Source: a virus | Taxonomy: Duplodnaviria > Heunggongvirae > Uroviricota > Caudoviricetes | Strand: one strand, 5' to 3' | DNA length: 45,019 nucleotides | IMG/VR virus record: IMGVR_UViG_2687453529_000004 | Part shown: in pieces, positions 1 to 45,019 of the stretch | Layout: each line of letters opens with the position of its first letter | Numbering within the stretch: the stretch's first letter is position 1 | The notes under the pieces: generated by a model | Database searches by the model: none | What the model was told of the DNA's origin: nothing | The model's input: only the letters and a program-made list of their open reading frames with translations | Position numbers and translations under genes: made by a program

Positions 1-750
1 TCAGTCAATTGTTTTGTTTATTCCATCTGTGACGCCGATTATTTTCTCAAAATAATGAGATGGCGTGACACCATAATAATCTTTAAATGCACATATGAAA
101 TATGAAGTACTGTTATAGCCACATTTCTGGGCTACGACATTGATAGAATAAGAGTTTGAAGTTATGAGTTTTTTTGCATACCTCATCCTAGTATCTCTCA
201 ATATTTCAGTAAATGACGTTCCTTCATCCCTTAATCTTTTTTTTATTAAACTTTCACTCGTATAAATCAATTCCGCAATATCTTTTAAATGCCATTGCCG
301 CTCAATATTAAAACTGATTATTCCAGTAATTTTACAGGTAAATGTATTTATATTTGTTAGTATAAATGAATTTACACTTTCGCGTTTTTTGAACATGGCA
401 AGTAAGGATATACATAGTCTTTCTTTTAACCAAAGGGAGTGTGAGTCTGCTATTTTAATCCCTTCAAACAGAGAAAAAACAAGCGATAATGGAGGTTCCT
501 CTTCAGCAATATAGCCATTCTTATCAAGAGTAAATTTGCCAGGCAGCTCATTATTCACGTCGATAAAAAAGGATAAACATGTTTTCTTATCTATATCAAC
601 AATTCTTAGTTTAGAGGGGCATACTGGTAACTCCCTTCTAATTTTGTCGCTTACAATAAACAATGAATTTTTTTTGAACGAGATAACTCTCCTGTTTATA
701 ATTAAATCAAATGATTGACAGATGAAAACTACGGAGCAAACATAATCCAT
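1..750 (-). CDS. appY: AraC/XylS-family transcriptional regulator, AppY-like
   Basis: 249 aa ORF with C-terminal AraC-type HTH signature; sequence recalled as the DLP12 regulator AppY; AT-rich gene and upstream region. Confidence 0.6.
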
Positions 751-2813: not shown

Positions 2814-3083
2814 TTAAGCCCATGTCCTTACATGCTGATCTGTCGTAATGAAAGGCATTAAAGAAGATATGTTTTTACTGCTATCAACAATCCTCATGTT
2901 TACGAAAAAACCACCGCGATCAATGCCCGTACATCTTTCGTTTTCTGGCTCCTCGTAATCAATAATGCAGCCAATAACATCAACAAGAACCCCATTTTCT
3001 TCTTCAAGACTGAACAGGCCACTGTCATATACAATTGCGTTAAACTGTTCTCTGTTATCGAATCGTAATGTTATATCCCGCAT
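2814..3083 (-). CDS. Hypothetical protein (89 aa) between the two fibre genes
   Basis: ORF only; no family recognised. Confidence 0.35.
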   Translation of the reverse strand: MRDITLRFDNREQFNAIVYDSGLFSLEEENGVLVDVIGCIIDYEEPENERCTGIDRGGFFVNMRIVDSSKNISSLMPFITTDQHVRTWA

Positions 3084-5446
3084 TATACGTATTCCTTAAG
3101 CTGCGTATCTGACAATGCTCTGTTCCAGAAACGGAGGTTTTTTATATGACCATTAAGGTGTCGTAATCCTGTCGTCGTTTGCCCCCCGATTCGAATCACG
3201 GCTGCTTCACGAATATATTTCCATACTGTTTTGGTTTCAGTGCTTATATGCTTATTTGCAAATGAGCATGTCATGCCGTCAGCCTTAACCCTGAATCCCA
3301 TAACGAGATCTCTTACTCCGCATGACTCATATACACGCCGGTTAGCCCCGCCTATATCGCAATACGAATAACCATCCTGACTGATAGTTCCAGAAGAACC
3401 AAACCCCATAATAAATGGGCCTCCGGACTGGTGATTTTCTGAATCAATGACACGCGGTGCAGCATTATGAGAAATAAACCAGTTTTTATGGACTTCCACC
3501 ATGAACGTAAAAGGCATGGTATACATATTTTTCATCAGCGGAAATTTACATAAATCTGATGCACGAGTCGCTGGCTCTGTTGTCGTTATGATAAAGGAAG
3601 TTGCACAAGCACCATACTCGAATTGCGGGGTGGTTACTTCTATCCAGTCACCTGTTGCAAAAGCCCCCACTGCTCTGTCGGCTGCAATTTGCAGCTGCGT
3701 ACCAACCATTCCCCATTCTGGCAGACATTTCAGTGTTGCCTGAAAATATATCCATCCACTACCAGGGTCGATTTCAAAGTTTGCTGTTAATAGCTGGGCA
3801 TTACCACCCGTAATTTGTAGTTCATGAGTCTGTAATGACAAATAGGCGTCACAAAGGAAAGTGTATCCTTCCGAGTTATACCGTTCAAAACGGATACGTG
3901 CGCGAACATTGAGATCACTTCTTACCCTGAACGACGCGGTAACATACGGACCTTTACTGTACTGATCATCGCCAGTCACATCTATGCCTTTATTACCAGC
4001 AACTGTGCATATATTTCTCCCTGTTGTCGTTCCTGCTATGTCGCTTCCTACTGTGAAACGTCCATATTTAAACTCAAATTCATCTGTTGATGATGTTACA
4101 GATATACCACCGCTTTTATTCCACGCATCAGGATTAAAACTATTTACGAACATGTTTGTTCGCTGATTCTCTATCAGCAAACCATATTTTTCAAAACGAG
4201 GAGCGTTATTCCCTGCCACGGTAATATGCCCGGACTTATCAATATACGTTGCTGATGAAGCGCGGCTAAATTGGCATATGCCATTAACAGGCATTGTTAT
4301 TTCATCACTGCCGATGGTTATTGTTTTATAGCCCGGGGCATACCCTGTTATCGCTTCCAGAGAATCATTCAAGGGTAGCCAGATATCAGGAAGCGGAGGG
4401 ACTGAAGCAGGATCAGCGGCATCTTCTGCAATCCGGGCTGCATTCTCTGCTCTTGTTGCGGCTGACGTTGCTTCTATCTCGCTGGCTGCTGCTTTTGTTT
4501 CACTCGTCTTTGCGTTAGTTTCACTGGTTTTTGCAGCTTTTTGGCTATTAGCTGCCGCACTTGCAGAACCAGCTGCGGCACTCTCGCTTTGGGCCGCTGC
4601 ATCCTGACTGTTTTTTGCCGCAGTTTCGCTGGCTTTGGCATTCGTTTCGCTGGTCTTCGCTGCCGTCTGGCTGGACTTTGCGTTAGTTTCACTCGTCTTC
4701 GCAGCTTTCTGGCTGTTAGCCGCAGCAGTTGCTGATCCAGCTGCTGAAGTCGCAGAACCGGCTGCTGCGCTCTCGCTTTCAGCTGCTGCAGCCTGGCTAT
4801 TTTTCGCCGCAGTTTCACTGGCTTTGGCATTCGTTTCGCTGGTTTTCGCTGCCGTCTGGCTGGACTTTGCGTTGGTTTCGCTCGTCTTTGCGGCTGTCTC
4901 GCTGTTTTTCGCGTTGGTTTCTGATTTTTTGGCTGCTGTCGCGGAGTTTGCCGATGCAGTCTGCGAGGACGCTGCCGCCTGTGCGCTGTTAGCTGCATTC
5001 GTTTCTGAGGTTTTCGCCGCGTTCTTCGATGATGCCGCTGCAGTTTCGGATTTCTTTGCCACCGCTGCGCTCTGAGAGGCGGCTTCGGCGTTGCGTGCCG
5101 CTTCTTCCACCATTGCCTCAAAACGACGCAATGCCTCCGGCATGACATCATCTTCCGTCATGGCACCGAGAAAATCATTCAGCGTACCTGGTCTGGAACC
5201 TTCATAGACGGTAATGGTTCCGGCATGTGAAGGCGGAAAACCTTCAACCAGCAGGGTGACGCTGTACTGGCCATACTCAACATCCATGCTGTAACGCCCG
5301 GCTTCATCCGGATTTTCAGAGGCCACCGTGTTCACCAGTACCGTGGTGCTGTTACGCTTTGCCTTCAGTTGAATAGTGCAGTTCTGTATTGGTTTTCCCG
5401 CACCATCTTTCAGCACACCTGAGATTTTTACTGCTGCCATATCCAC
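3083..5446 (-). CDS. stf: Side tail fibre protein with internal tandem Ala/Ser/Thr/Lys-rich repeats and a LamG-like C-terminal domain
   Basis: 787 aa ORF immediately downstream of lom; N-terminus resembles lambda Stf; repeats KTSETNAK/AAKNSQ visible in the translation. Confidence 0.8.
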   Translation of the reverse strand: MDMAAVKISGVLKDGAGKPIQNCTIQLKAKRNSTTVLVNTVASENPDEAGRYSMDVEYGQYSVTLLVEGFPPSHAGTITVYEGSRPGTLNDFLGAMTEDDVMPEALRRFEAMVEEAARNAEAASQSAAVAKKSETAAASSKNAAKTSETNAANSAQAAASSQTASANSATAAKKSETNAKNSETAAKTSETNAKSSQTAAKTSETNAKASETAAKNSQAAAAESESAAAGSATSAAGSATAAANSQKAAKTSETNAKSSQTAAKTSETNAKASETAAKNSQDAAAQSESAAAGSASAAANSQKAAKTSETNAKTSETKAAASEIEATSAATRAENAARIAEDAADPASVPPLPDIWLPLNDSLEAITGYAPGYKTITIGSDEITMPVNGICQFSRASSATYIDKSGHITVAGNNAPRFEKYGLLIENQRTNMFVNSFNPDAWNKSGGISVTSSTDEFEFKYGRFTVGSDIAGTTTGRNICTVAGNKGIDVTGDDQYSKGPYVTASFRVRSDLNVRARIRFERYNSEGYTFLCDAYLSLQTHELQITGGNAQLLTANFEIDPGSGWIYFQATLKCLPEWGMVGTQLQIAADRAVGAFATGDWIEVTTPQFEYGACATSFIITTTEPATRASDLCKFPLMKNMYTMPFTFMVEVHKNWFISHNAAPRVIDSENHQSGGPFIMGFGSSGTISQDGYSYCDIGGANRRVYESCGVRDLVMGFRVKADGMTCSFANKHISTETKTVWKYIREAAVIRIGGQTTTGLRHLNGHIKNLRFWNRALSDTQLKEYV
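4470..5090. repeat. Tandem ~200 bp coding repeats inside stf
   Basis: Near-identical DNA blocks (e.g. tgccgcagtttcgctggctttggcattcgtttcgctgg at ~4611 and ~4806); repeated peptides in the forward and shadow frames. Confidence 0.7.
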
Positions 5447-5504
5447 TCCACAAAAAAGCCCGCCTGAACCGGCGGGCTGTCATAACACTGTGTTACCTGG
5501 CTAA

Positions 5505-6104
5505 TCAGAATTTATAACCGACACCCACGATGAAACCGTCAGTGCGCCAGTCGCCACTGCCGGAGCCTTCATAAGCAATATCAATGGCCACGGATTCGGT
5601 CGGGTTAAACTGCACGCCAGCTCCCCACGCCAGAGACGTGTTGCTGTGGCGATCGTCATCACTTCCGGTCAGCACATCGTGCGTTTTCCCCTTGTTGTCA
5701 GTTACGCGGAGATAATCCCCGGAGAACGTCGAAACACGGCTGTAAGCCACACCTGCCATCGCATAAGCACTGAACCATTCATTCACGCGTACAGATGGCC
5801 CCGCCATCATGCTGAACCAGCGGTTACGCACTGAATCTTCATGCCAGCGGGTATCGCTGTAATGCGTTTTTTGCTCATCTTTGGCATTGGCATAACTGAA
5901 TGACGTCACCAGCCCCAGCGTGTCCGTAAATTCATAACGGTATTTCACGTTAATGCCCTTCAGGTCATCACTGCCTGGCATATCAGTATAGGTCTGAAGA
6001 TACCCGGCGCTTAGTGTGGACTGATGCTCTGCTGCGCTCGCTGGCGTACCAGCGGCAACCAGCCAGACTACTGCGGACAGAATAACAGCACATAATTTAC
6101 GCAT
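5505..6104 (-). CDS. lom: Outer membrane protein Lom (Ail/Lom family)
   Basis: 199 aa, signal peptide, C-terminal ...GVGYKF beta-barrel terminus; position after J. Confidence 0.85.
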   Translation of the reverse strand: MRKLCAVILSAVVWLVAAGTPASAAEHQSTLSAGYLQTYTDMPGSDDLKGINVKYRYEFTDTLGLVTSFSYANAKDEQKTHYSDTRWHEDSVRNRWFSMMAGPSVRVNEWFSAYAMAGVAYSRVSTFSGDYLRVTDNKGKTHDVLTGSDDDRHSNTSLAWGAGVQFNPTESVAIDIAYEGSGSGDWRTDGFIVGVGYKF

Positions 6105-6171
6105 AATTACCTCTCGCTTTTCTGCAATAAAAAAGGCGTCATTTCTGACGCCCGTATTGGGGTTATAAAAT

Positions 6172-9100
6172 TCAGCTGATACTGATGCCTGCGGTGGCTT
6201 TCTTCATCACCACAACCAGCAAATCGCTGATACTTGCTGTGGGATACCAGCCATTTACCAGCCATGCCGATACAGAAAATTCCAGTGTCATGACACCACT
6301 GCCTGCAGGCATATCAATAACACCCGTATATATCAGCGTATTATCCAGAGCCGTTCGGTTATAAATTTCAGCACCGTTTTTTCGTACTATCAGACGGCAT
6401 GAGGAGTAGATATCAGTATGATCTTGCTCATGTTTAGCGCCACTGAATGCCACCGCCGGGATAACAATTTGCCGGTCAAACGGCTGATCGTCATAAACCC
6501 TGACGGTAATGGTTCCTGATGGCCACCGCTCCGGTGCACGGGAGTCCCGGGGGAAAGCTTTGCCCACCGTTTTAACGAGATCGCCTTCAATCTGGTTCGC
6601 GGACAGTTTTCCCAGAACCCGGCAGTTCTCGTTAATCGTGACGTTGTTGAGCGTCCCGGAGTTCGCATTCACGTTACCGCTGATATCGGCATTTTTCGCC
6701 GTCAGCCGCCCGTCCGGTGTCAGGGAAAATGCCGGAGGATTACCGCCGCTGGTAATGGTGGGAGCCGTCAGATATTTCAGGAACACTTCGTTCATGAATA
6801 TCTGATCGCCCTGACCAACAAACATCGGCTTTGTGTTGCCATTCGCAGGATTAACCATCGCAATCCTGTCCGCCGCCAGCAGCACCTGACTCTGCATGCC
6901 GTCAGGGGTGTTCTCAATACCGGCACCAATACCCGCGATATAAAGGCGTCCGTCCTGCATCTGCTGCAGCTTCACAGCCCACATGCTGTTCAGGTTATTA
7001 TTTGTATCAACCTGAACCTTCTGTATCTGCTGGATCGCCGCACTCTGGTCTTCCAGTTTCTTATTGACAGTCTGCGTGATTTCATTGCTGACATCCGTAA
7101 TGGACGTCCTGATTTCAGCCAGGTCAGGCGCAAGCTGACCGTTATCAATCTGCGTCCACAGCTCCTGAGCCAGATGTGTTTTCCCTATCTCTCCTTTGAA
7201 AAAATCCAGGTAACCTTCCGCATCATCGCTCGCCCGACCGATAGCCTCCACGAATGCCGATTTGCCAACAGTATTCACACTGCGGATATAAAAGTAATAA
7301 TCATGGCCCGGTTTGATATTGATACTGGCGGCTATCCAGTACAGTGCCGTACCAAGATAACGCGCGCTGGTTTCAACCTGCCTGATATCCGCAATCCGTT
7401 TTTCCGAGAACCAGAACTCAAACTGTACCGTCGGGTCATAAACCGCAAGATGCGGCGTGGCGGTTATCTGAAAATAGCCCGGTGTCAGCTCAATCCGAGA
7501 CGGCGCTGCCGGTGCGGCAATCCGGAACGATACCGATGCCGGATCGCCCTGCTGTCCCCACGCATTTACCGCCCGGACTGTCAGCCTGTAGTTCCCCAAC
7601 GCCAGTTGTGTGAAGCGGTATGTGGTTTCCGTCGTCCGGGCCGTGCTGACCAGCCGCTCACTGCCGTCGTCCGCTGTTACGGTCAGACGGAGCAGGAAGC
7701 TCACGCCCTTCACCACCTTCGGTGTGTCCCAGCGCGCCAGCACCTGATATTCCCCGCTGTCTGCGGTGACTTCGGCAGTCAGGTGCTGCACCGCTGGCGG
7801 CGTGACACCATTCACCGTGCCGCTCTGGTCGCCGTCAAAGTGCGCCCCGTTATCCACGATGGCCTCTTTTTCCGGCACATGCTGCACGGCGGTGATGGCA
7901 TACGTGCCGTCGTCGTTCTCACGGATACTCACACAGCGGAACAGGCGCTGGCGCAGCGTCGGCAGCTTCAGCCCCCACACACTGTATTCTGCAACGCCGT
8001 CAGGAACCCGGTTCACTTTCACCTTAAGTCCGTCGGTGACGGACTGAACCTCCACGCTGACCGGATTACCACTTCCGTCAACCAGGCTTATCAGCGTGGT
8101 ACCGGAGGATGGCAGCGTGATTTCACGGTCGAGCGTCAGCGTCCGGGTCTGGCTGTTCACCGCCAGCACGCGACCACCGGTGCTGATACCGACATAGTCA
8201 TCATCGCAGATTTCAATGACATCGCCCGGTACATGGCGAAGCCCTTCAGCACCCACGCTGAAATCCACGGTCTGCGTCTCCAGCAGTTCCGTTTTAATCA
8301 GCCACAGCCCGGCGCGGTGTGCCTGCCCCCGGCTGGTACAGCCAAAGGCATCCATCTTCGTGACATTACGACCGTAACGGGCAATGGCCTGCGTATCTTC
8401 AACAAGCTCTGTCGCCGTCTCCCAGCCGTTGTCCGGGTCAATCCAGTTCACCTCAACGGCATTATGGCGGTCCTTCAGGGCGCTGAAGCTGTAGCGGAAC
8501 GGCGCGCCATCATCCGGCATCACCACATTACTGCGGTTATAGGTCCACACCTTATCCGACGGTCGGTCCTGCACGAACGTCAGCGTCTGCCCGTTCCATA
8601 CCGGCATACAGCGCATCGCCGAGCAGAAATCACTGAGCACATCCCACGCCTTGCGCTGTGTGGTCAGGTACGCATTACAGGTGATGCGCGGCTCCGTGCC
8701 GCCAAAGCCGTCCGGCACTGACTGGTCGCAGTACTGGCCGATGACATACAGCGCCCATTTGTCCACATCCGCCGCACCAAGACGTTTCCCCATGCCGTAG
8801 CGTGGATGGGTCAGCATATCCCACAGACACCAGGCCATGTTATTGCTGTATGCTGGCTTAAACGTTCCGTCCCAGATACCGCTGTATTGCCGAGTCTGCG
8901 GGTTATAGTTCGACGGCACCTGCAGAATACGCCCGCGCAGATGATAATTACGGCTCACCTGCTGGCTGCCGAACTGCTCCGAATCCACCTGTACGCCGAC
9001 CAGTGCCGTGTTCGGGTAGCACTGTTTCACATCGATGATTTCGGTGTATGACGACCAGAGCGTTTTGTTCTGCAGCTGGTCTGTGGTGCTGTCCGGCGTC

Positions 9101-9651
9101 ATCCTGCGCATCCGGATATTGAACGGGCGCGGCGGCAGGTTATCCACCACCACCGAGGCCAGATACTGCGAGGTGGTTTTGCCCTTAATGGTGATGTCTT
9201 TTTCCGTCACCCAGCCACCATTACGCTGTATCTGAACCAGCAGGCGGACTTCCGACGGATTCCGGTCCCCCTTTGAGGTGGTTTCCACCAGTGCCTGTAC
9301 ACCGAAGGTAAAGCGCAGACGGTCGATGTTTGCCGACGTGATGGTCCGGGTGATCGGCGTGTCATATTTCACTTCCGTACCCAGCACCGTCTCGGAGCCG
9401 GAGGATTCAAATCCCTCCGGCGGTGACTGCTCCTGCTCACCGGTCCGGAACACCACCGTGACGCCGGAGATATTGGTATTCCCCTCACTGTCCAGCACCG
9501 GCGTACTGTTCAGCAGCACGCTTTTTAATCCGTCCACCGGACCTTCAACCGGCCCTTCGCTGATGGCATCGATCACACTCAGCAGCTGCGTGGACTTCAG
9601 GTTGTCCTTCGCTTCGCGCGGGGTATGCCCCTTACTGCTGCCTTTACCCAT
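6172..9651 (-). CDS. J: Tail tip attachment / central tail fibre protein J
   Basis: 1159 aa; N-terminal region matches recalled lambda gpJ (1132 aa); C-terminal receptor-binding end appears divergent. Confidence 0.9.
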
Positions 9652-9711
9652 TCCTCACGCTCCATAAACGACAAAACCGCCCGCAGGCGGTTTCACATAA
9701 AACATTTTGCA

Positions 9712-10797
9712 TCAGCGACCAATCACCACAACCTGACCACCATCCCCTTCGTCTGCCGTGCTGATCTCCTGAGAAACCACGCGTGACCCCACGCGCATTT
9801 CACCGTACAGAACAGGCAGAACATTGCCCTGGGCAACCATGTTATCCAGTGAGGAGAAATAGGTGTTCTGTTTGCCGTTATCCGTTGTCTGTGTACGGGG
9901 AGTTCTGGCTTTCGGTGCCAGCATCTGCGCCACACCACCGAGCACCATACTGGCACCGAGAGAAAACAGGATGCCGGTCATACCACCGGCCCCAATGGCT
10001 GCCCCCCATGCTGCAAGGGTGGCTCCGGCAGTAAAGAATGATCCGGCAATGGCGGCTGCTCCCAGGACAATCTGGAATACGCCACCTGACTTGGCCCCGG
10101 CGACTCTGGGAACAATATGAATCACAGCGCCATCAGGCAGAGTCTCATGTAACTGCGCCGTTAACCCGGACGTGCTGACGTCCCGCCCGGCAATCCGTAC
10201 CTGATACCAGCCGTCGCAGCCGCAGTAAATTGCGGCGTGATTCGGCACCGATGAACCAAAACAGCACAGCAGCACATCGCCCGGCTGTGCCGCTGACAAC
10301 GGCACCTGATACAGCCCCGTCGCCTCCAGATTATCCAGATAGAGATTCTGGCCGTTACGCCACCAGTCATCCTCACGATGAAAGTCCGGCATCTCAATCC
10401 CCGCCAGATGATAAGCATCCCGGAACAGTGTGTAACAGTCCGTCACACCGTGCTCAAAGCGCCGCCCGGTGAGATGCGGCACACAGCGGAACTTATGAAT
10501 CGTCCCCCGGCAGACCAGCCACCACGGCAAATCACTCTGCACCTGCAGCCGCCGGTCGGCCTCACTCAGCCAGGGCAGACCACCGGGGTGGCTGTGGACC
10601 AGCGCCACAATCTCACCCTGCATTTCTGCCTGCAGCCAGTCTTCCGGCGACATACGGAAATACGCCTCCGGCTCACCGGAGATATTCACGCAGGGGAAAT
10701 ATCTTTCCCCCTCCGGCGTGCTTACCACGAAGCCGCACGACTCCGCTGGCGCACATCGCCGGGCGTGCGCCAGAATCGCTGATTCTGTCTGTGTCAT
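9712..10797 (-). CDS. Tail tip assembly proteins K and I fused in one frame
   Basis: 361 aa ORF: N-terminus is gpK (JAMM HSHP motif, NlpC/P60-like Cys), C-terminus is the gpI end (...TADEGDGGQVVVIGR); lambda has separate overlapping K (199 aa) and I (223 aa). Confidence 0.75.
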   Translation of the reverse strand: MTQTESAILAHARRCAPAESCGFVVSTPEGERYFPCVNISGEPEAYFRMSPEDWLQAEMQGEIVALVHSHPGGLPWLSEADRRLQVQSDLPWWLVCRGTIHKFRCVPHLTGRRFEHGVTDCYTLFRDAYHLAGIEMPDFHREDDWWRNGQNLYLDNLEATGLYQVPLSAAQPGDVLLCCFGSSVPNHAAIYCGCDGWYQVRIAGRDVSTSGLTAQLHETLPDGAVIHIVPRVAGAKSGGVFQIVLGAAAIAGSFFTAGATLAAWGAAIGAGGMTGILFSLGASMVLGGVAQMLAPKARTPRTQTTDNGKQNTYFSSLDNMVAQGNVLPVLYGEMRVGSRVVSQEISTADEGDGGQVVVIGR

Positions 10798-10802
10798 GGG
10801 AT

Positions 10803-11501
10803 TTACTGCGAAAGTTTGTTAATGGAAAGGAAGCCGCCAAAGTTGCCGACGTTATTGCGGAACTTACAACCGCTCAGGCATTTGCTGCATTTATCCTTCG
10901 TGATATCGGACGTTGGCTGGTCATATTCATCCGCGACCGCCGGACCGCTATAACCGCACTCGTCACCGCGATAGGTCCAGGTGCAGGTGTTGGCCAGCAT
11001 GATACGTCCCGGAAAAACAGCGCCATCCGTTTCCGTCGGCGTGGACAGTACAAAGGAGGCACTCACCGCGCTCAGTTCGCTGCACTGCTCAATGCGCCAG
11101 CGGCTGATCACCTCCTGCTCCGGATCGGCATAACTGTTTCCGTTGACGAAGTTCACCGCATCCAGAAAACGGGCGTAAACCTTACGCCGGACCACCGTTC
11201 CGCCGACCAGACTCTGCATATCTTCCGCCATCCCGGTGACCATACCGTACAGGTTAGAAACCGTCAGCGTGGGGCGCGTACTGGTGCCTTTGCCATTCAG
11301 TTCAAAACCGCTCCCCTGAATGGGATACGGCTGATACTGTCGCCCCTGCCAGGTGACCGGCTCACCTTTTTCGTTCTGCTCATTACAGAAAAAATAACGT
11401 TCTCCACCGACCTCTGTCAGGTCGATTTCCCAGAGCACCACGCTGGCCGACTGCTCCGCACGGGTGCATTCATTCAGTGTTTCCTGCCGGATATCCTGCA
11501 T
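10803..11501 (-). CDS. L: Minor tail protein L
   Basis: 232 aa, matches recalled lambda gpL. Confidence 0.9.
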   Translation of the reverse strand: MQDIRQETLNECTRAEQSASVVLWEIDLTEVGGERYFFCNEQNEKGEPVTWQGRQYQPYPIQGSGFELNGKGTSTRPTLTVSNLYGMVTGMAEDMQSLVGGTVVRRKVYARFLDAVNFVNGNSYADPEQEVISRWRIEQCSELSAVSASFVLSTPTETDGAVFPGRIMLANTCTWTYRGDECGYSGPAVADEYDQPTSDITKDKCSKCLSGCKFRNNVGNFGGFLSINKLSQ

Positions 11502-11830
11502 CAGTTCACCACCTGTTCAAACTCTGCGCTGAACTCAACACGCAGCATACTGACCCGCGACGACCATTTTGCGCAGGTCACCTTTATCTGCCGCCACTCA
11601 TAAGGCGGCGTCCACAGAAAGGCTTTCCAGCCCCCGTGCTCTTCCAGAAACGACTCCAGTACCGTGGCCTCCTCACGGGGGACAGAAAGCGTCACGCTGT
11701 ACGTTTTCAGGTTGGCATTCAGCCCGGCAGGCGCTCGCTGGGAACAGCCATCACCAAAGCGCACCTTTCTTACAGAAGGGGCCGAAGCCACATCCATACC
11801 GGGTTTCACTTTCCAGCGGAAGGTTTTCAT
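11501..11830 (-). CDS. M: Minor tail protein M
   Basis: 109 aa, matches recalled lambda gpM. Confidence 0.9.
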   Translation of the reverse strand: MKTFRWKVKPGMDVASAPSVRKVRFGDGCSQRAPAGLNANLKTYSVTLSVPREEATVLESFLEEHGGWKAFLWTPPYEWRQIKVTCAKWSSRVSMLRVEFSAEFEQVVN

Positions 11831-14389
11831 CGTCCACCTCCGGAGAACAGACCACCATCACGCATCTGTGTCTGAATTTCATCACGGGCACCCTTGCGGG
11901 CCATGTCATACACCGCCTTCAGAGCAGCCGGACCTATCTGCCCGTTCGTGCCGTCGTTGTTAATCACCACATGGTTATTCTGCTCAAACGTCCCGGACGC
12001 CTGCGACCGGCTGTCTGCCATGCTGCCCGGTGTACCGACATAACCGCCGGTGGCATAGCCGCGCATCAGCCGGTAAAGATTCCCCACGCCAATCCGGCTG
12101 GTTGCCTCCTTCGTGAAGACAAACTCACCACGGTGAACAATCCCCGCTGGCTCATATTTGCCGCCGGTTCCCGTAAATCCTCCGGTTGCAAAATGGAATT
12201 TCGCCGCAGCGGCCTGAATGGCTGTACCGCCTGACGCGGATGCGCCGCCACCAACAGCCCCGCCAATGGCGCTGCCGATACTCCCGACAATCCCCACCAT
12301 TGCCTGCTTAAGCAGAATTTCTGTCATCATGGACAGCACGGAACGGGTGAAGCTGCGCCAGTTCTGCTCACTGCCGGTCAGCATCGCCGCCATATTCTGT
12401 GCAATACCATCAAAGGTCTGCGTGGCTGCACTTTTTACCTGCGACATACTGTCCGTGGCGCTCTCTTCCCACTCACTCCAGCCGGACTTCAGGCCTGCCA
12501 TCCAGCTCCCGCGAAGCTGGTCTTCAGCCGCCCAGGTCTTTTTCTGCTCTGACATGACGTTATTCAGCGCCAGCGGATTATCGCCATACTGTTCCTTCAG
12601 GCGCTGTTCCGTGGCTTCCCGTTCTGCCTGCCGGTCAGTCAGCCCCCGGCTTTTCGCATCAATGGCGGCCCGTTTTGCCCGTTGCTGCTGTGCGAATTTA
12701 TCCGCCTGCTGCGCCAGCGCGTTCAGGCGCTCCTGATACGTAACCTTGTCGCCAAGTGCAGCCAGCTGGCGTTTGTACTCCAGCGTCTCATCTTTATGCG
12801 CCAGCAGGGATTTCTCCTGTGCGGACAGCTGGCGACGTTGTGCCGCCTCCTCCAGTACCGCGAACTGACTTTCTGCCTTCCACAAATCCCGGCGCTGCTG
12901 GCTGATTTTCTCATTCGCTCCGGCATGCTTCTCCAGCGTCCGGAGTTCTGCCTGAAGCGTCAGCAGGGCAGCATGAGCACTGTCTTCCTGACGATCGCCC
13001 GCAGACACTTTCACGCCGGACTGTTTCGGCTTTTTCAGCGTCGCTTCATAATCCTTTTTCGCCGCCGCCATCAGCGTGTTGTAATCTGCCTGCAGGATTT
13101 TCCCGTCTTTCAGTGCCTTGTTCAGTTCTTCCTGACGGGCGGTATATTTCTCCAGCGGCGTCTGCAGCCGTTCGTAAGCCTTCTGCGCCTCTTCGGTATA
13201 TTTCAGCCGTGACGCTTCGGTATCGCTCTGCTGCTGCGCATTTTTGTCCTGTTGAGTCTGCTGCTCAGCCTTCTTTCGGGCGGCTTCAAGCGCAAGACGG
13301 GCCTTTTCACGATCATCCCAGTAACGCGCCCGCGCTTCATCGTTAACAAAATAATCATCCTTGCGCAGATTCCAGATGTCGTCTGCTTTCTTAAACGCAG
13401 CCTCTGCCTTAATCAGCATCTCCTGCGCGGTATCAGGACGACCAATATCCAGCACCGCATCCCACATGGATTTGAATGCCCGCGCAGTCCTGTCTGCCCA
13501 GGTCTCCAGCGTGCCCATGTTCTCTTTCAGGCGGCGGGTCTGGTCATCAAACCCTTTCGTTGCGGCCTCGTTCGCCGCCTGCAATGCCCCGGCTTCATCG
13601 CCGGAACGCTGCAACTGAGCAACATACGCAATCTGCTCCGCCGTCACGTTATGGAACTGGCGTGCCATCGCCGTCAGCCCCGACGTCGGGTCTGTGGTCA
13701 GCTTCCCGAAGGCTTCAGCGACCTTGTCCACCTCCACGCCGGATGCAGAGGAGAAACGCGCCACACTCTGGCTGATGGACGCAATCTGAGCCTCACCGCT
13801 TACCCCCGCCTTAACCAGTGCGCTGAGTGACTCGCTGGTCTGGTTAAACGTCAGCCCTGCCGCCTGCCCGGCTCTGGACAGGACCAGCATACGATCTGCC
13901 GTCAGACCCGACTGATGACCGGAAAGGACCAGCGTTTTGTTGAAATCGGACAGGGTTGAGTTGCCCTGATACCAGGCATACGCCAGCGCACCGGTCGCCA
14001 CCGCCAGCGAGGTGGCCCCCACCATCGGCAGGGTGATCGCACCGGCAAGCCCCCTGAACATGGGGATCATCCCGCCGAAGGAGTCCTTCACCTGCCCCCC
14101 CCTGTTGCAGCAGGATCAGCCACGGACTTTGCCCGCCTGCAAGCTGCGTGGCCACGTCAGTGAACTGCGCAGGCAGCATACGCATGGCAGCTTTATACTG
14201 CCCGACGGAAATCCCCGCTTTCTGTGCAGCCAGCGCCTGTCGGCTCAGCGACTGTTCAACGACTGCCGCTGTTTTTTTCGCATCACTTTCCGTACCGGAA
14301 AAATGACGCCTGACTCTGGCCATCTGCTCGTCAAATCTGGCCGCATCCAGACTCAAATCAACGACCAGATCGCCTACCGGTTCAGCCAT
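11827..14389 (-). pseudogene. H: Tail tape measure gene H, split by a +1 frameshift in a G8 run
   Basis: N-terminal 99 aa (from 14389) and C-terminal 754 aa (to 11827) are in different frames and together give 853 aa, the lambda gpH length; junction at the C8/G8 homopolymer 14096-14103. Confidence 0.8.
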
Positions 14390-14816
14390 ACCGGACTCCT
14401 CCTGCGATCCCTTCTGATACTGTCATCAGCATTGCGTCATCCTCCGTCATGTCCGCCACATCCGGGGAAGTAGGGATAACTTCATTCCCGTCCGGGCCAA
14501 AGCGGACACCTCCGGCAAGCCCTGCCGCTTTCTGCATCAGCACATCATCTTCAGGCTCTTCGTCAGCCTCGCGCCGGTTCAGCAGACTGAAATCCAGCGG
14601 ATGCATATCCGGATCGCTGAAAAACAGGCTGAGCACGGTGTACGTCAGCCCGGAAAAGTGCATATCCAGCAGAACATCATGAAAATAATGGGTACTGTAA
14701 AAGCGGTGCCAGTCGGCATACTCCGTGGATGACATCCCGGCAAGCATGGCACGCCAGTCGGGTCGCCCCATCTCACGCGCCAGTTTCAGGGCAAAACTCA
14801 GCTCACCGTCGAACAC
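14382..14816 (-). CDS. T: Tail assembly protein T frame, expressed as G-T by programmed -1 frameshift
   Basis: 144-codon ORF overlapping the 3' end of G in the -1 frame; matches recalled lambda gpT. Confidence 0.8.
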   Translation of the reverse strand: MFDGELSFALKLAREMGRPDWRAMLAGMSSTEYADWHRFYSTHYFHDVLLDMHFSGLTYTVLSLFFSDPDMHPLDFSLLNRREADEEPEDDVLMQKAAGLAGGVRFGPDGNEVIPTSPDVADMTEDDAMLMTVSEGIAGGVRYG

Positions 14817-15220
14817 TTTCCCGCAGAAACAGGTTCTGCGGGCCCGGCGTCCTCTGCCTGTTCAGGGGCATTATTCACCACAAACTCATACATACCAGAC
14901 AGCCGGTACACCACGTTTTCAGCATGAGAAATTGCCTCTGTGGGCCAGGTGGTAAGCACTTCCTGCTCAATCTGTTTAACGGCTTCATTCATGGAAGGCT
15001 GCTTTGTCTTCTGCGGATGGTTATGCCACAGGGACATCGCCACCAGAAACGCGCCGGTTCTGATGGCGTCTTCCACAGTAAACTTCCGGTTGCTGTCTGA
15101 CTCCGCCTGTTCTGCCTGCCGTTTCATCAGGGCGAGATGCTCAATACGCTGCAGGGCTGACAGTTCAGAAAGCGTGACGGTCACACCGTTATGTTCAAAT
15201 GATTCGGTTTTCAGGAACAT
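14798..15220 (-). CDS. G: Tail assembly chaperone G
   Basis: 140 aa, matches recalled lambda gpG. Confidence 0.9.
   Translation of the reverse strand: MFLKTESFEHNGVTVTLSELSALQRIEHLALMKRQAEQAESDSNRKFTVEDAIRTGAFLVAMSLWHNHPQKTKQPSMNEAVKQIEQEVLTTWPTEAISHAENVVYRLSGMYEFVVNNAPEQAEDAGPAEPVSAGKCSTVS
14816..14822 (-). promoter_or_regulatory. G-T programmed -1 ribosomal frameshift slippery heptamer GGGAAAG
   Basis: Minus-strand GGGAAAG located 5 codons before the G stop, at the G/T overlap. Confidence 0.7.
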
Positions 15221-15235
15221 CTCTGACTCTCCGGA

Positions 15236-15976
15236 TTAACTGGCGGTGACGGTGATTTCTGCAACCGCAGCAAACTCACCATTACCGGATACAATCGGAA
15301 TGTTGACCTTGCCTGCAGCAACGCCATTCACGGTGATGGTCATACCACTGACCGACACGGTGGCTTTTGTTTTATCCGCTGACACCGCACGGAAGCTCTT
15401 GTCGGTTGCGCCTTCCGGCTGGAATGCCACGGTCAGCGTGGTGCTCTTCCCTTTCACTACGGAAGCGCTGGCTGGCGTCACGGTCATACCGGTTACCGCT
15501 GTTACCGTGCTGCGATCTTCTGCCATCGACGGACGTCCCACATTGGTGACTTTCACCGTGCGGGTGATCACTTCCTTCGCCGTCACCGCCTTACCGATAC
15601 TGCTGACCCAGCCGCGGAACACATCGACCGTGCCGTTCGGGAAGCGGATTTTATAGGCACGGGTATCACCTTCATTAAACCACGCCAGCAGCGCCTGCTG
15701 CCCCTGCTCTCCGGGCATCCACGCCAGCGTGAAGCTGGTATCTCCGGCGGATTTCTGCCCCTGTCCGGTCGCGGTCCAGTCCGCATCTTCATCATCGAGA
15801 TAACTGTCGTCATAGGACTCAGCGGTCAGTTCGCCGGGCGTCAGGTCTTTAACCTTTGCCAGACGCGACCAGTCATTGTCTGAAAGCGGGTTTGCATAAG
15901 GGTCGCCGCTCCCGTTATAAACCCACAGGGTGGTCCCGGCCCCTTTCACCGGTGCCAGAGGATTTGGTGTTGGCAT
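15236..15976 (-). CDS. V: Major tail protein V
   Basis: 246 aa from [18 protein letters not shown]; matches recalled lambda gpV, including the C-terminal Ig-like domain. Confidence 0.9.
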
Positions 15977-15983
15977 ATCGTCC

Positions 15984-16379
15984 TCACATTTCATAGGTAA
16001 TGACATAAGTCAGATCGGCTGAACTCCACAGGCCCGCATCATCGTCGCGCCGGTAGTCATAGCCACTGGCCACCATACTGGTGATCAAATCTGACAGTGC
16101 CGGGATATCGCTCATCACCGGATAAATCCGGGACTCCATCCACGCATCCAGCTCTGAATCCGGCACCTGAGCAGGCAGGAAAACTTCGATATGCAGCTCC
16201 GCCTGCCAGGTATCGCTGTCCAGCTCTTCGCCCGTGTATTCAGCGCCGGTGAGATAAACGGCAACTGCCGGAAAATCCGCCTCATCAAAAACAGCGGGGC
16301 GACCATCAAAAAACGTCGCCCCGGTGTCATGCTTCTCCAGTGCATCCAGTACGGCTGCGCGGAGTTCAGTATGTTTCAT
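15984..16379 (-). CDS. U: Tail terminator protein U
   Basis: 131 aa, matches recalled lambda gpU. Confidence 0.9.
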
Positions 16380-16954
16380 CGCTTTATTACCATTCTCAGT
16401 TGATGCTGCAGCGCATAGCCCAGCTCTTTCGGAAGACGTTCACGCCGTATCCGCTCAATATTCTGTTTAAACGCCGTGGTCAGCGGCACCGCCATCGGAA
16501 TTTTCACCACATCAATGGGGTAACGGTTTTTCCCGGCCACACGCTGCATGACATGCCACCGGCCATTTTTCAGTTGCTGAATAAACGCGCCGGGAATACG
16601 ACGGTTTCCCACCACAAGCACGCTGCCGCCACCTTTCAGGGATGAACGCTGCCCCTTTTTACGACGCCTGCGGCGCGAAAGGACAACCCGCGCATTACCC
16701 AGCTTGATTACGGGCAAATCCCCCCGGTTAACCTTGATTCTGGCCTGCGGATTTTTGACCGTGGCCCTTTTCAGCCTGGCCCTTTCCTTTACCAGTTTCC
16801 GGCGTACCTTTGTCTCACGGGCAACCTGTGACGCCGACTGCGATATCGCGGATGAAGCAACTCGGTTAATGGCCATTGCGGCGGCACCGGGCACCGCCGT
16901 TCTGCTGATACGGCTGAGGTTTTCAACGGCCTGCTCAAGACCTTTTATGGCCAT
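16376..16954 (-). CDS. Z: Tail completion protein Z
   Basis: 192 aa, matches recalled lambda gpZ. Confidence 0.9.
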   Translation of the reverse strand: MAIKGLEQAVENLSRISRTAVPGAAAMAINRVASSAISQSASQVARETKVRRKLVKERARLKRATVKNPQARIKVNRGDLPVIKLGNARVVLSRRRRRKKGQRSSLKGGGSVLVVGNRRIPGAFIQQLKNGRWHVMQRVAGKNRYPIDVVKIPMAVPLTTAFKQNIERIRRERLPKELGYALQHQLRMVIKR

Positions 16955-16965
16955 ACATCCCCCTT

Positions 16966-17319
16966 TCAGCGGCGACGGTTAACGGCAGGCGGTACGCCCC
17001 GTCCAAGCCAGAGATGACAGCTTCCGCCATCATCCGGCGAAACCCGATCTACCCAGAAATTTTCCTCACCGATGGTCAGCGTGTCTCCACGCCGCAGCTG
17101 CCGCACCTCATCAGTCCGGACAAACAGGGACGGGCTGGAGCCTTCAACGCGCACGCCCTGTCCGGCATAGCTGATATTTTCAGGGTCATCAAAAACACCA
17201 CGTATCACCGCACCTGACTGCTCACCGGATGTAATGGTGGCTGACGTTCCCATGTACCCGCGTATCGTTTCATCGGCGCGGGCAATGGCAGCATCGAACA
17301 GGTTATCGAAATCAGCCAC
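16966..17319 (-). CDS. FII: Head-tail joining protein FII
   Basis: 117 aa, matches recalled lambda gpFII. Confidence 0.9.
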   Translation of the reverse strand: MADFDNLFDAAIARADETIRGYMGTSATITSGEQSGAVIRGVFDDPENISYAGQGVRVEGSSPSLFVRTDEVRQLRRGDTLTIGEENFWVDRVSPDDGGSCHLWLGRGVPPAVNRRR

Positions 17320-17330
17320 AGCGCCTCCCG

Positions 17331-17729
17331 TTATTGCATTCTGGCCAGGCCGCGCTCTGTCATTTCGGCTGCCACACCGGCAGAGACACGAAACGCCGTT
17401 CCCGGCAGCACAAATGCCACAGGTTCATCCCGCGTGGCGTGAAGTGCATCAGTATGCAGCTTCACCAGTGCCACGACCGTGACCAGTTCAGACGTATCCA
17501 GAATCACGGTATCCGGCTGCGCTGATCCCACCTCATTTTCATGTCCGGTCAGCACATTTTCCCGGCTGAGAGGGGTGTCCTGACCGGCAGTTTCATCCGT
17601 GTCATCAAGCTCCTCTTTCAGCTCTGCCACACGGAGCGCCAGTTCTTCTTTCGTCCCCGTCAGGCTGACATCACGGTTCAGTTGTTCACCCAGCGAGCGG
17701 AGACGGGCAATCAGTTCATCTTTCGTCAT
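17331..17729 (-). CDS. FI: DNA packaging protein FI
   Basis: Start at MTKDELIARLRSL, 132 aa; matches recalled lambda gpFI. Confidence 0.85.
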   Translation of the reverse strand: MTKDELIARLRSLGEQLNRDVSLTGTKEELALRVAELKEELDDTDETAGQDTPLSRENVLTGHENEVGSAQPDTVILDTSELVTVVALVKLHTDALHATRDEPVAFVLPGTAFRVSAGVAAEMTERGLARMQ

Positions 17730-17770
17730 GGACTCCTCCACAGAGAAACAATGGCCCCGAAGGGCCATGA

Positions 17771-18796: not shown

Positions 18797-18851
18797 AAAA
18801 AAATCCCGTAAAAAAAGCCGCACAGGCGGCCTTTAGTGATGAAGGGTAAAG

Positions 18852-19184: not shown

Positions 19185-19193
19185 AAACATCCC

Positions 19194-20493: not shown

Positions 20494-20513
<20 letters not shown>
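19194..20513 (-). CDS. C: Capsid assembly protease C
   Basis: 439 aa from a GTG start (VTAELRNLPHIASMAF); matches recalled lambda gpC. Confidence 0.85.
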
Positions 20514-24193
<3,680 letters not shown>

Positions 24194-24219
<26 letters not shown>

Positions 24220-24739: not shown

Positions 24740-24916
24740 TGTTCATTCCACGGACAAAAACAGAGAAAGGAAACGACAGAGGCCAAAAAGCTCGCTTTCA
24801 GCACCTGTCGTTTCCTTTCTTTTCAGAGGGTATTTTAAATAAAAACATTAAGTTATGACGAAGAAGAACGGAAACGCCTTAAACCGGAAATTTTTCATAA
24901 ATAGCGAAAACCCGCG

Positions 24917-36392: not shown

Positions 36393-37090
36393 ACCCTTGC
36401 TCCTTTCAGCCCAAACTTAGCTTTGATTTCTGCGATCTTCGCCAGAGCCTGTGCACGATTTAGAGGTCTACCGCCCATGACAGGAAGTTGTTTTACTGGT
36501 TCAGGTATAGCCTCACCACGGTTAATTCGTGCGGTCATACAGGACAGTTCATCGGCAGCCTTGCGCCGTAATTCCGCGTCAGTCAACGCATTGGCCCGCA
36601 TGTTCTGATACAGGTTGGTAACCAGCCAGTAGTGCGCGTTTGATTTCCACGGATAAGACTCTGCATCCGGATACAGCCCGCGCTTCCGGCAATACTCGTA
36701 AACCATATCAACCAGCTCGCTGGCGTTTGGCAGCCCGGCGGTAACGGATGCTTCTTCCCGGCACCAGGCGACAAACTGCCCGGGTGATGGCAGGAATGGT
36801 CGATTCTGCCGACGGGCTACGCGCATTCCAGCGTTAACCTGTTCCATTGTGGTGATCCCGTTTTCCCGAAAAGCCAGCACCCACTGGCGGCGGATTTCGT
36901 TCAGTTCATTCTGGTCACGGTTAGCCAGGCTCGCCGGGAAAGTTGCCAGTAACTGGCTGAACACACCGTTGATGATCTGCGCTACCTGCTGTACCTGCGG
37001 CTTTTCGTCGTACTGTTCCGGCATGTTGTTGGCGATCCGACGCATCTGCTCACGGTCAAAGTTAACCATCTGTGCGGCGATGTTTTTCAT
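36389..37090 (-). CDS. P: Replication protein P (helicase loader)
   Basis: 233 aa, matches recalled lambda gpP. Confidence 0.9.
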   Translation of the reverse strand: MKNIAAQMVNFDREQMRRIANNMPEQYDEKPQVQQVAQIINGVFSQLLATFPASLANRDQNELNEIRRQWVLAFRENGITTMEQVNAGMRVARRQNRPFLPSPGQFVAWCREEASVTAGLPNASELVDMVYEYCRKRGLYPDAESYPWKSNAHYWLVTNLYQNMRANALTDAELRRKAADELSCMTARINRGEAIPEPVKQLPVMGGRPLNRAQALAKIAEIKAKFGLKGARV

Positions 37091-38016
37091 AAATCCACCC
37101 CGTAAATCCAGTCAGTGTTTGTCAGGTCGAGTTTTGGTTTGCTGGCTATCATGCCTGCCTGTTGCTTGTTACGGTTGATTTCGAGTTGGGTCCACTTGTC
37201 GCGGAGTTTGGCCGGACTTAGCACGTTACCGGACCAGAAGTTGTCCTGGCATGCCCAGCGGAAAAGCACGCACATGTCGCGGTGGTTACGTCCGTCACGT
37301 TCACGCATCAGGCGGATATCGTTAGCCCACCCTGCAAAATTCGGTTTTCTGGCTGATGGTGCGATGGTCTTCACCATGTCAAACATCCACTCTGCGGCGG
37401 TCAGGTCTTCTGCTGTCCCCCACTTGCTGCCGCTCTGAATTGCAGCATCTGGTTTCACCACAGGAAGATCGTTTTCTGGTTGGTCAGAGGATTCGCCAGA
37501 ATTCTCGGACGAAAAAGGTTTTATATTGTCTTTTGTTAGTTTGTCTTTTGTGTTTACCTGATTCGGGTAAACGCCTTTACCTGATTTGGGTAAACTTTTC
37601 TTACCTGATTCAGGTAAATTTACCTCTTTCAGGTAAACTTTATTTTTCTTACCTGATTCGGGTAATGTTGACCATTCACTGACCACATTATTAATACCGA
37701 TATTCCGCCCGCTCTGAATCAAAATCCCACGCTTTACCAGAACACTTTTTGCAGCAGAACACTTGTGCGGTAATATCCCGGTCAATCCGGACAGTTGCTC
37801 GTTGCTCACCCAATCCAGTTTTTTATTAAAGCCATATGTTTTGCGCATGACAGCCAGGAAGACCAGAAGCTGGTGCTGTGTTAATCCGGCCAGCATCACA
37901 GCTTCCAGCAACTCATTTGCAATGCGCGTATAACCATCATCGAGATCTGCCACGCGCGGCTCCTTTTGTGCCGCATCCGGCACTGGAAAATTGAATATCT
38001 CAGCAGTGTTTGCCAT
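37087..38016 (-). CDS. O: Replication initiator protein O
   Basis: Start MANTAEIFNF with GGAGG RBS; N-terminal DNA-binding domain differs from lambda O; iterons inside the gene; C-terminal region lambda-O-like. Confidence 0.85.
   Translation of the reverse strand: MANTAEIFNFPVPDAAQKEPRVADLDDGYTRIANELLEAVMLAGLTQHQLLVFLAVMRKTYGFNKKLDWVSNEQLSGLTGILPHKCSAAKSVLVKRGILIQSGRNIGINNVVSEWSTLPESGKKNKVYLKEVNLPESGKKSLPKSGKGVYPNQVNTKDKLTKDNIKPFSSENSGESSDQPENDLPVVKPDAAIQSGSKWGTAEDLTAAEWMFDMVKTIAPSARKPNFAGWANDIRLMRERDGRNHRDMCVLFRWACQDNFWSGNVLSPAKLRDKWTQLEINRNKQQAGMIASKPKLDLTNTDWIYGVDL
37553..37669. repeat. Replication origin iterons within O (five ~19 bp TTACCTGATTCGGGTAA-like repeats)
   Basis: Five direct repeats with ~22 bp periodicity, each an internal palindrome; adjacent AT-rich stretch at ~37500-37545. 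Confidence 0.75.
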
Positions 38017-38102
38017 AATTCCTCCCGCAATGAGTGTGTTACGATTTGCACCTGAAAGTCGGTTCTGTTCCAGCAGACCGGCTTTCGCCATTTCTGAACC
38101 TG

Positions 38103-38642
38103 TCATATCGCCCCCAGCATGGTAGTAACCATCGCCATCAATGGACCAGCCAGATCTGGGTCCACACGAAACATCGATACAATACCTTCACTAATTTCCT
38201 TCAGTTTCTGGTGGCGTGGTGCGTTGAGAATGACAGCCTGTTTTGCCTCACTGAGTTCCTTTTCCATTTCAGCCAACCTGGCCATGAAGCTATCCTGCTC
38301 AACCAGGTAACCGCGATATTCCAGCGGTAGTACCGCCAGAATTGCCGGGGTCAGTTCACGCACGTTATTTCGGTATTTTTCAGAATCGAATTTGTTATCG
38401 AGGAAGCGGAACAGCTTCTGGCGTGCACGGCTGACATCATCAGGGAAATCGATGGTGCCGCCGCCCTGCTCCCGATACTCATTCACAATGAGTGTGGCAA
38501 CGACATCCTGATTATCTACAGCCGACCAGGCGCGGACGGCATCACGGATTTTTTCGTGGCCTGGCACCTGTTTTGTTTGAGAACGATTTATCACCGCAGT
38601 CGGGCTAAATCCGCTAGTCTGTTGGTATGGAAGTGGTTGCAT
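38103..38642 (-). CDS. CII-like / YdaT-like early regulatory protein
   Basis: 179 aa ORF in the cII position immediately after cro; family assignment tentative. Confidence 0.45.
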   Translation of the reverse strand: MQPLPYQQTSGFSPTAVINRSQTKQVPGHEKIRDAVRAWSAVDNQDVVATLIVNEYREQGGGTIDFPDDVSRARQKLFRFLDNKFDSEKYRNNVRELTPAILAVLPLEYRGYLVEQDSFMARLAEMEKELSEAKQAVILNAPRHQKLKEISEGIVSMFRVDPDLAGPLMAMVTTMLGAI

Positions 38643-43657: not shown

Positions 43658-44000
43658 GGCCTGTCAGTTTCTTAAGATATCCAGACCAACCGCCACCAAC
43701 TGGATACGAACAGGCCGCCTACAGGCAACACGTAAAGATCCAACCAAGCCAAAATCTCCTTACCTCACAACACGGCAAGCCTGCATTGCGGCGCTTCAGT
43801 CTCCGCTGCATACTGTCCAGGTGAGCGCGGGTGATGGCATAACAGAGGAAAGAAAATGTCACTCTTCCGCAGAAATGAAATATGGTATGCCTCGTATTCG
43901 CTCCCGGGCGGGAAACGAATTAAGGAATCTCTTGGCACAAAGGACAAGCGGCAAGCTCAGGAGTTGCACGACAAGCGAAAAGCAGAACTCTGGCGAGTAG
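43629..44000 (+). CDS. xis: Excisionase-like DNA-binding protein, overlapping int start
   Basis: ORF from [31 protein letters not shown] (HTH-like) directly upstream of and overlapping int; exact stop uncertain. Confidence 0.5.
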
Positions 44001-45019
44001 AAAAGCTAGGGGATTTACCTGATGTCACTTTTGAAGAGGCCTGCCTAAGATGGCTTGAGGAAAAAGCTGATAAAAAATCTCTCGATTCAGATAAAAGCCG
44101 GATTGAGTTCTGGCTTGAACATTTTGAGGGTATAAGGCTTAAAGATATCTCGGAGGCAAAGATTTACTCTGCTGTAAGCAGAATGCATAACAGAAAGACG
44201 AAAGAAATATGGAAACAGAAAGTTCAGGCCGCCATCAGGAAAGGTAAAGAACTGCCTGTTTATGAACCAAAGCCAGTATCAACTCAGACAAAGGCAAAGC
44301 ATCTTGCCATGATAAAGGCCATTCTCCGTGCTGCAGAACGCGACTGGAAGTGGCTGGAAAAAGCGCCTGTCATCAAGATACCAGCGGTCAGAAACAAGCG
44401 AGTCAGATGGCTGGAAAAGGAGGAAGCAAAACGCCTTATTGATGAGTGCCCCGAACCACTGAAATCTGTCGTCAAGTTTGCGCTGGCAACTGGTCTGAGA
44501 AAGTCGAACATCATAAATCTGGAATGGCAACAAATCGACATGCAGCGACGAGTTGCCTGGGTGAATCCAGAAGAGAGCAAATCAAACCGCGCCATTGGTG
44601 TGGCGCTGAACGATACCGCCTGTAAAGTGTTGCGTGATCAAATAGGCAAGCATCACAAATGGGTGTTTGTACATACCAAGGCGGCTAAGCGAGCAGATGG
44701 AACATCAACGCCTGCGGTCAGGAAGATGCGCATCGACAGCAAGACATCATGGCTATCAGCTTGTCGTCGTGCAGGAATTGAAGATTTCCGTTTCCATGAC
44801 CTCAGACACACCTGGGCAAGCTGGCTGATTCAGTCAGGCGTCCCATTATCAGTGCTTCAGGAAATGGGCGGATGGGAGTCCATAGAAATGGTTCGTAGGT
44901 ATGCTCACCTTGCGCCTAATCATTTGACAGAGCATGCGAGGAAAATAGACGACATTTTTGGTGATAATGTCCCAAATATGTCCCACTCTGGAATTATGGA
45001 GGATATAAAGAAGGCGTAA
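43856..45019 (+). CDS. intD: Tyrosine site-specific integrase (IntD-like)
   Basis: 387 aa; C-terminal catalytic motifs HDLRHTWAS and RRYAH-type Tyr region; matches recalled DLP12 IntD; stop at window end. Confidence 0.9.

Follow-up and report, generated by a model that had tools for sequence, protein, structure and literature searches.

In cryo-EM structures of phage lambda, only residues 134/135-223 of the tail-tip protein gpI are resolved. These residues assemble into a trimer and plug the lumen of the tail tip beneath the C-terminus of gpH, and gpK is undetected in the virions (PMC10721106, PMC12617516). An N-terminal ubiquitin-like domain was identified in I by Iyer et al. (2006; PMC1779556), who predicted that the JAB domain of K cleaves I at the C-terminal glycine of this domain. 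In the same study, degenerate versions were noted to be typical of integrated prophages, and in one E. coli prophage TAPI (I) was described as joined to the JAB domain (PMC1779556). K–I fusions in prophages are thus a known kind of finding. A literature search on the enzymology of gpK found no papers.

Among prophages, DLP12 of E. coli K-12 has the same integration site (tRNA-Arg near intD, to appY/ompT) and the same cargo genes as the prophage described here. Unlike K-12 DLP12, the present copy keeps the whole lambda-like head and tail set and represents earlier stages of the same decay, which makes it a less decayed, full-length relative of that element.

A chimeric K–I reading frame and the deletion at its junction

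The window, that is, the whole stretch of 45,019 nucleotides that was analysed, is exactly one lambdoid prophage (1-45019) in reverse orientation, running from appY (1..750) to intD (43856..45019). Its counterpart, NZ_CP115376.1 4711292-4756537, extends from intD (beside tRNA-Arg) to appY (beside ompT), and, apart from the K–I lesion, differs from the window by 4 substitutions and 6 one-base indels. The cargo genes emrE, ybcK, rusA, essD, rrrD and nohD are accompanied by a complete lambda-like set of head and tail genes. Many complete E. coli genomes match 20-45 kb of the window at ~100% except at the K–I site, and all the listed matches of window 5000-25000 carry 226-227 extra bases there. 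The matching E. coli prophages have separate K (247 aa) and I (223 aa) genes.

At this site the window carries one ORF of 361 aa. Its ATG lies 5 bp after the stop of the upstream neighbour, the L homolog (10803..11501), and 60 bp separate its end from the downstream neighbour J (6172..9651). The frame reads MTQTES...VALVHSHPGG...VPNHAAIYCG, then C, then DGWYQVRIAGRD...GGQVVVIGR, and the fusion product is K(1-193)-Cys-I(57-223). An in-frame fusion of K and I at 9712-10797 had been predicted from the letters of the window. The ORF listing bears out the 361-aa frame with the K start, the HSHP motif, the AAIYCG-C junction and the VVIGR end, and Pfam and alignments to lambda and to other prophages confirm that K and I are joined in frame. 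The coordinates of the prediction stand, and its strand needs correcting to minus (Table 1).

Table 1. Positions in the window of the parts of the fused frame and of two further lesions.
Feature	Window position	Strand	Basis
Chimeric K'-'I ORF, 361 aa plus stop (coordinates include the stop)	9712..10797	minus	ORF listing and Pfam domains
K-derived part, codons 1-193	10219..10797	minus	100% DNA identity to K of the CUVET20-PYO4 (L003) and FDAARGOS_497 (L004) prophages up to 10219; Pfam; AF2
JAMM/MPN+ domain, complete (~residues 3-104)	10486-10791	minus	Pfam
Junction filler base T	10218..10218	minus	Alignments and junction read-out
I-derived part, I residues 57-223 and two bases of codon 56	9715..10217	minus	100% identity to L003 and L004 from 10217 down
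C-terminal half of the I ubiquitin-like domain	to ~10093	minus	Pfam profile positions 39-83 of 83
I134-223, virion-resolved C-terminal region	9715-9984	minus	Cryo-EM (PMC10721106, PMC12617516)
G8 run with one extra G, tape-measure gene H (11827..14389)	14095..14102	minus	ORFs; alignments
Site of one-base deletion, portal gene B (~20494..22094)	21691..21692	minus	Alignments

The lesion was placed by alignment to lambda NC_001416 (L001), phage PhiR30_1 (L002), and the prophages of E. coli CUVET20-PYO4 (L003) and E. coli FDAARGOS_497 (L004). In all four alignments the breakpoints fall at window 10219 and 10217, and a single T stands in place of 228 reference bp, a net loss of 227 bp. The intact sequence around the lesion is ...TTTACTGCGGC|GACGGCGAG...AAACTGA|GCGACGGCTGG..., so that the 8-mer GCGACGGC is present at each end of the lost segment. 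A clean slip between the two copies removes 230 bp, and the window has 3 bases more; the lesion can thus equally be described as the loss of 230 bp between the two GCGACGGC copies together with a gain of 3 bases. The '~229 bp deletion with 3 bp insertion' of the original prediction was, in essence, correct. The pairwise alignment with lambda K–I that had been proposed as a check was run: lambda has no continuous ORF here, and 228 bp of it are replaced in the window by one T. When window 9500-11000 was compared by megablast with 50,697 phage records, 238 records matched, and each of the best 40 matched in two pieces, with ~227 extra bases in the record.

The deletion takes 54 codons of K (194-247) and codons 1-55 of I, and, with the filler T, I codon 56 (window 10216-10218) reads TGC (Cys) in place of AGC (Ser). 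Neither of the in-frame ATGs of I (MAATHT... and MARICLY...) survives, as each falls within the lost 228 bp, and the K/I overlap is gone as well. I is read in the -1 frame relative to K and 227 is 3n+2, so that the remainder of I falls into the frame of K; by chance alone, one such deletion in three would be in frame. The predicted loss of the first ~56 codons of I is in accord with these positions. The predicted loss of the last ~6 codons of K was far too small, as 54 codons are gone from a K of 247 aa.

The length of K accounts for this difference. Intact K is 247 aa in modern lambda sequences and in the prophage copies, where it starts right after L. The classic lambda record NC_001416 lacks one base near lambda 14266 (L001 637/638; window 10663) compared with the window and with modern lambda. 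Because the record misses this base, lambda K is given as 199 aa (J02459/NC_001416), from 14276, which is Met49 of the real protein. The 199-aa K is an old annotation error of the classic record, which misled the earlier reading of the locus.

Two other origins of the junction were considered and rejected. DNA identity to lambda is 99.7% to the left of the junction and 97% to the right; recombination between different prophages was discarded, as sister prophages with intact K and I show the same mosaic and are 100% identical on both sides. A move of the lost segment to another place in the window was also discarded, since BLAST of the segment against the window gave chance hits only.

Some further features of the window were recorded. 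It has intact alleles of appY (249 aa) and of an HTH-domain gene (246 aa) at 244 and 28266, and both genes are annotated as frameshifted in CUVET20-PYO4, the closest complete genome. One-base indel differences among these assemblies run in both directions, and some of them may reflect sequencing errors. The side tail fibre ORF (3083..5446, minus) contains a 189-bp tandem repeat of 1.8 copies, 88% identical (window 4563-4906), and the side tail fibre region is annotated in sister genomes as an incomplete tail-fibre pseudogene. The replication-protein gene (37087..38106) contains, at window 37553-37642, short tandem repeats of 19-23 bp that resemble the iterons of a lambdoid replication origin. 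Rfam gave no match in the window, and a promoter and terminator scan around the K–I ORF stayed at chance level.

Domains retained and lost in the chimera

Residues 1-193 of the chimera are ~99.7% DNA-identical to lambda gpK (247 aa, 'C40 family peptidase') and identical to K of the sister prophages, and the start codon is in the same place as in lambda, 5 bp after L. The JAMM domain is complete in both: Prok-JAB covers residues 3-104 of the chimera with 52.9 bits (Pfam), and H68, H70 and D81 of the JAMM HxH...D motif, which reads H68-S-H70 and D81 in lambda gpK too, are present. Conservation was assessed in an alignment of 63 K homologs with 33-95% identity, in which these three residues are invariant. 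Unlike lambda gpK, the chimera lacks residues 194-247, with His199 and the C-terminal helix, and runs on into I. At 361 aa it departs from the stand-alone protein expected of the K family, of ~230-270 aa and with its end just before or within the start of I.

The second domain of K is truncated by the junction. NLPC_P60 is matched over residues 111-224 of intact K with the full profile (49.2 bits, Pfam), as against residues 111-210 of the chimera with profile positions 1-89 of 105 (30 bits, Pfam), and the tail end of the latter match is aligned onto I residues. The NlpC/P60 domain of the chimera stops after the strand that bears His187. C121 and H187 are at least 90% conserved in the 63 homologs, His199 is invariant and lies in the deleted part, and the 54 lost residues as a whole are highly conserved. 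By its spacing and conservation, C121...H187...H199 presumably corresponds to the Cys-His-His triad of NlpC/P60 peptidases. A complete NlpC/P60 domain with this triad is therefore absent from the chimera.

The structure of intact K was modelled with AF2. With the 63-sequence alignment, which includes distant representatives, the model had a mean pLDDT of 96.5 and a pTM of 0.90; an earlier model from a 21-sequence alignment had a pLDDT of 50, and its NlpC/P60 half was unusable. In the intact-K model the deleted segment forms strands 196-199, 207-210 and 219-225 and helices 213-218 and 230-244. Foldseek matched this model to the JAMM deubiquitinases P. furiosus JAMM1, Rpn11 and AMSH, and also to the NlpC/P60 endopeptidases MepS/Spr and C. 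difficile Acd33800. A sequence search of solved structures with K and the K profile found JAMM proteins only and no NlpC/P60 chain. For the triad, conservation and the fold search were therefore used in place of a sequence match to a solved structure.

The I-derived part begins within the ubiquitin-like domain. Lambda_tail_I (PF06805) is matched in the intact 223-aa I over profile positions 2-83 with 100 bits, and in the chimera over residues 194-235, profile positions 39-83 of 83, with 41.5 bits. The chimera thus has no complete N-terminal ubiquitin-like beta-grasp domain. It also has no start of I inside the 3' end of K. Compared with lambda gpI (223 aa), it lacks the start codon and residues 1-55 and has Cys for Ser56; residues 57-223 are kept, with 98% DNA identity to lambda and 100% to the sister prophages. 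The conserved Gly-rich end of the ubiquitin-like domain, PRVAGAKSGG, is retained, as is the Gly-rich hydrophobic linker of I. The plug region of gpI (lambda 134-223) is kept as chimera residues 272-361, and its DNA is identical to that of the sister prophages.

In the RefSeq/PGAP annotation of the CUVET20-PYO4 and FDAARGOS_497 prophages, I (14943-15516) is given as 190 aa, from a GTG that overlaps the K stop, and it matches Lambda_tail_I positions 26-83. As the ATG of the 223-aa form gives positions 2-83 and 100 bits, the longer form of I is probably correct. With this start the K/I overlap is 103 nt.

Uniqueness of the junction and decay of the prophage

The proposed search for the same fusion in other prophages was made, and the K193/I56 junction was found in none of the collections searched. 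A junction-centred 50-mer had no BLAST match in 5,426 complete E. coli genomes, 50,697 phage records and 72,556 plasmids; a 50-mer of the same design for the portal lesion found its 10 genomes, which indicates that the search method works. The 33-mer junction CAATTTACTGCGGCTGCGACGGCTGGTATCAGG had no exact match in GTDB species representatives, IMG/VR and JGI metagenomes, and the exact 361-aa protein was absent from ~15 billion proteins and from the gene-position index.

A homology search with the chimera returned clusters of intact K with up to ~13,000 members and clusters of I with up to ~5,300. Dozens of proteins of odd length were also among the results, almost all of them in one-member clusters. 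Mapping onto K and I identified at least 30 other K–I hybrid ORFs with differing breakpoints, again nearly all one-member clusters. In one group the frame switches inside the 103-nt K/I overlap, from K ~214-228 to I ~1-20. In a second group the deletions are larger, as in K166/I~85 (P0004), K~231/I~125 (P0007), K66/I~45 (P0029) and K~86/I~60 (P0079), and the junctions are often at shared residues. Hybrids of E. coli prophages (P0004, P0007, P0010, P0019, P0029, P0031, P0079) link, as the window does, an N-terminal portion of K in frame to a C-terminal portion of I, and such sporadic hybrids come about through a deletion or through a small indel within the 103-nt overlap. The breakpoint K193/I56 of the window is, however, shared by none of the mapped hybrids. 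Single-member variants of I with internal tandem duplications and varied lengths were also seen (P0022, P0023, P0034, P0053, P0062, P0112, P0115), which suggests that slippage, or else assembly errors, readily affect the region of the I gene.

In the set of the 150 best representatives at 50% identity, the distant homologs of K stand alone, with lengths of 220-275 aa and a match to the chimera that ends at ~193-198, and the homologs of I are likewise separate proteins; a conserved fused architecture was not found in this set beyond E. coli-like oddities. Recurrence of this fusion in independent genomes, as would mark one that is maintained in evolution, was likewise not observed. From these comparisons, separate K and I genes are the conserved state and the hybrids are sporadic. 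The chimera is one more of the sporadic deletion fusions of defective lambdoid prophages.

Two other morphogenesis genes of the prophage carry lesions. The one-base deletion in the portal gene splits it into ORFs of 135 and 398 aa. The portal 50-mer showed this inherited frameshift to be common to 10 complete E. coli genomes, where RefSeq labels the gene 'frameshifted'; the prophage was hence already defective before the K–I deletion. In the tape-measure gene H, the extra G breaks the frame into two ORFs, one of 181 aa and one of 754 aa. The best of 3,715 complete-genome matches to a 121-base query all have G7 and not G8. This query replaced a 50-mer without matches, in which the G8 run was probably masked by the BLAST low-complexity filter. 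The G8 run could be a real slip or a homopolymer sequencing error.

In the FDAARGOS_497 prophage, portal, H, K and I are all intact, and sister copies of the prophage carry further pseudogenes. These prophages thus form a nested series that leads from a state with the four genes intact, through the sublineage with the portal frameshift, to the present genome with its private H frameshift and K–I deletion. Selection on the tail genes would have been relaxed once the portal was lost. The K–I lesion, set against otherwise identical intact copies and accompanied by other inactivating lesions in morphogenesis genes, has the marks of a decaying prophage, and it is the newest step of the series.

Origin and consequences of the fusion

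These results are probably explained by a real, private deletion in a decaying lambdoid prophage at the DLP12 site of E. coli, by which K and I were turned into an in-frame, non-functional K'–'I pseudogene. A spontaneous deletion next to the 8-bp direct repeat GCGACGGC would have cost 228 bp and gained one filler base. It would have taken the last 54 codons of K, the K/I overlap, and the start codon and first 55 codons of I, and the chimera would then be translated from the K start in the late operon. Judging from the domain profiles and the AF2 model, the product keeps its JAMM domain entire. Of the NlpC/P60 domain it has roughly two thirds, the third catalytic residue being lost, and of the ubiquitin-like domain the second half, followed by the Gly-rich hydrophobic linker and the complete C-terminal region of gpI. 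As no separate gpK or gpI can be made and the domains are truncated, we infer that the chimera has lost its function in tail assembly. The original prediction had left open whether the fusion was non-functional decay or a viable variant, and the former is favoured by the domain truncation, the unique allele and the frameshifts in the portal and tape-measure genes. The in-frame outcome is a 1-in-3 chance result; it gives no evidence of selection and is weakly compatible with it. Residual or altered activity is conceivable, as the JAMM domain, PRVAGAKSGG and the whole virion-resolved gpI region are kept.

It is improbable, in our estimate, that the junction is an assembly or sequencing artefact, in which case the strain would have intact K and I, and the gap would stem from assembly or consensus polishing, with confusion among several near-identical lambdoid prophages in one genome as a possible route. 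Such an error would fit the uniqueness of the junction in every collection searched, and E. coli genomes do carry a median of 2 copies of the K–I region. The private one-base indel in the G8 homopolymer is typical of long-read error, so that the assembly may hold small errors, and the six one-base indels against the closest relative fall in part in homopolymers; the many one-member clusters of K/I rearrangements in the databases could themselves be artefacts. Homopolymer errors, however, do not produce losses of 227 bp. The two flanks match a single prophage at 100% identity and show no jump to a paralogous copy, and there is no long flanking repeat that could collapse, only one of 8 bp. A filler base beside microhomology is, moreover, a typical signature of biological deletion. 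These observations point to a biological deletion and not to an assembly error.

Least probable, and to our mind very unlikely, is that the fusion is a viable, self-processing polyprotein, in which the JAMM domain would cut in cis after the Gly-rich remnant of the ubiquitin-like domain and free the C-terminal plug of gpI, the K portion still supplying the contribution of K to tail assembly. The predicted cleavage of I by the JAB domain and the TAPI–JAB fusion in a prophage (Iyer et al. 2006; PMC1779556) lend themselves to this reading, as do the virions in which only gpI 134/135-223 and no gpK is seen (PMC10721106, PMC12617516), and the plug region, the JAMM domain and the PRVAGAKSGG segment are all kept. 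However, a JAMM enzyme would recognise a ubiquitin-like fold, and here the first half of that fold is missing; the NlpC/P60 domain has lost three core strands together with the invariant His199, and the 54 deleted K residues are highly conserved. The allele was found once only, distant homologs show no conserved fused architecture, and the prophage is unable to make particles anyway because its portal and tape-measure genes are frameshifted. The suggestion of a viable fused variant is accordingly disfavoured by the truncation of both domains that adjoin the junction, by the uniqueness of the allele and by the broken portal and tape-measure genes. If the polyprotein were real, neither the NlpC/P60 domain of K nor a folded ubiquitin-like domain of gpI would be needed for tail-tip assembly, and the JAB–Ubl processing hypothesis of Iyer et al. 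(2006; PMC1779556) would receive direct support.

As a private deletion in an already dead prophage, the chimera matters little in itself. The locus exposes two annotation traps, the '199-aa' lambda K that results from a one-base record error and the PGAP start of a 190-aa I that truncates the Pfam domain. The prophage of the window is a clean nested example of stepwise prophage decay, and natural K–I chimeras are ready-made constructs for testing the proposed JAMM-mediated processing of gpI.
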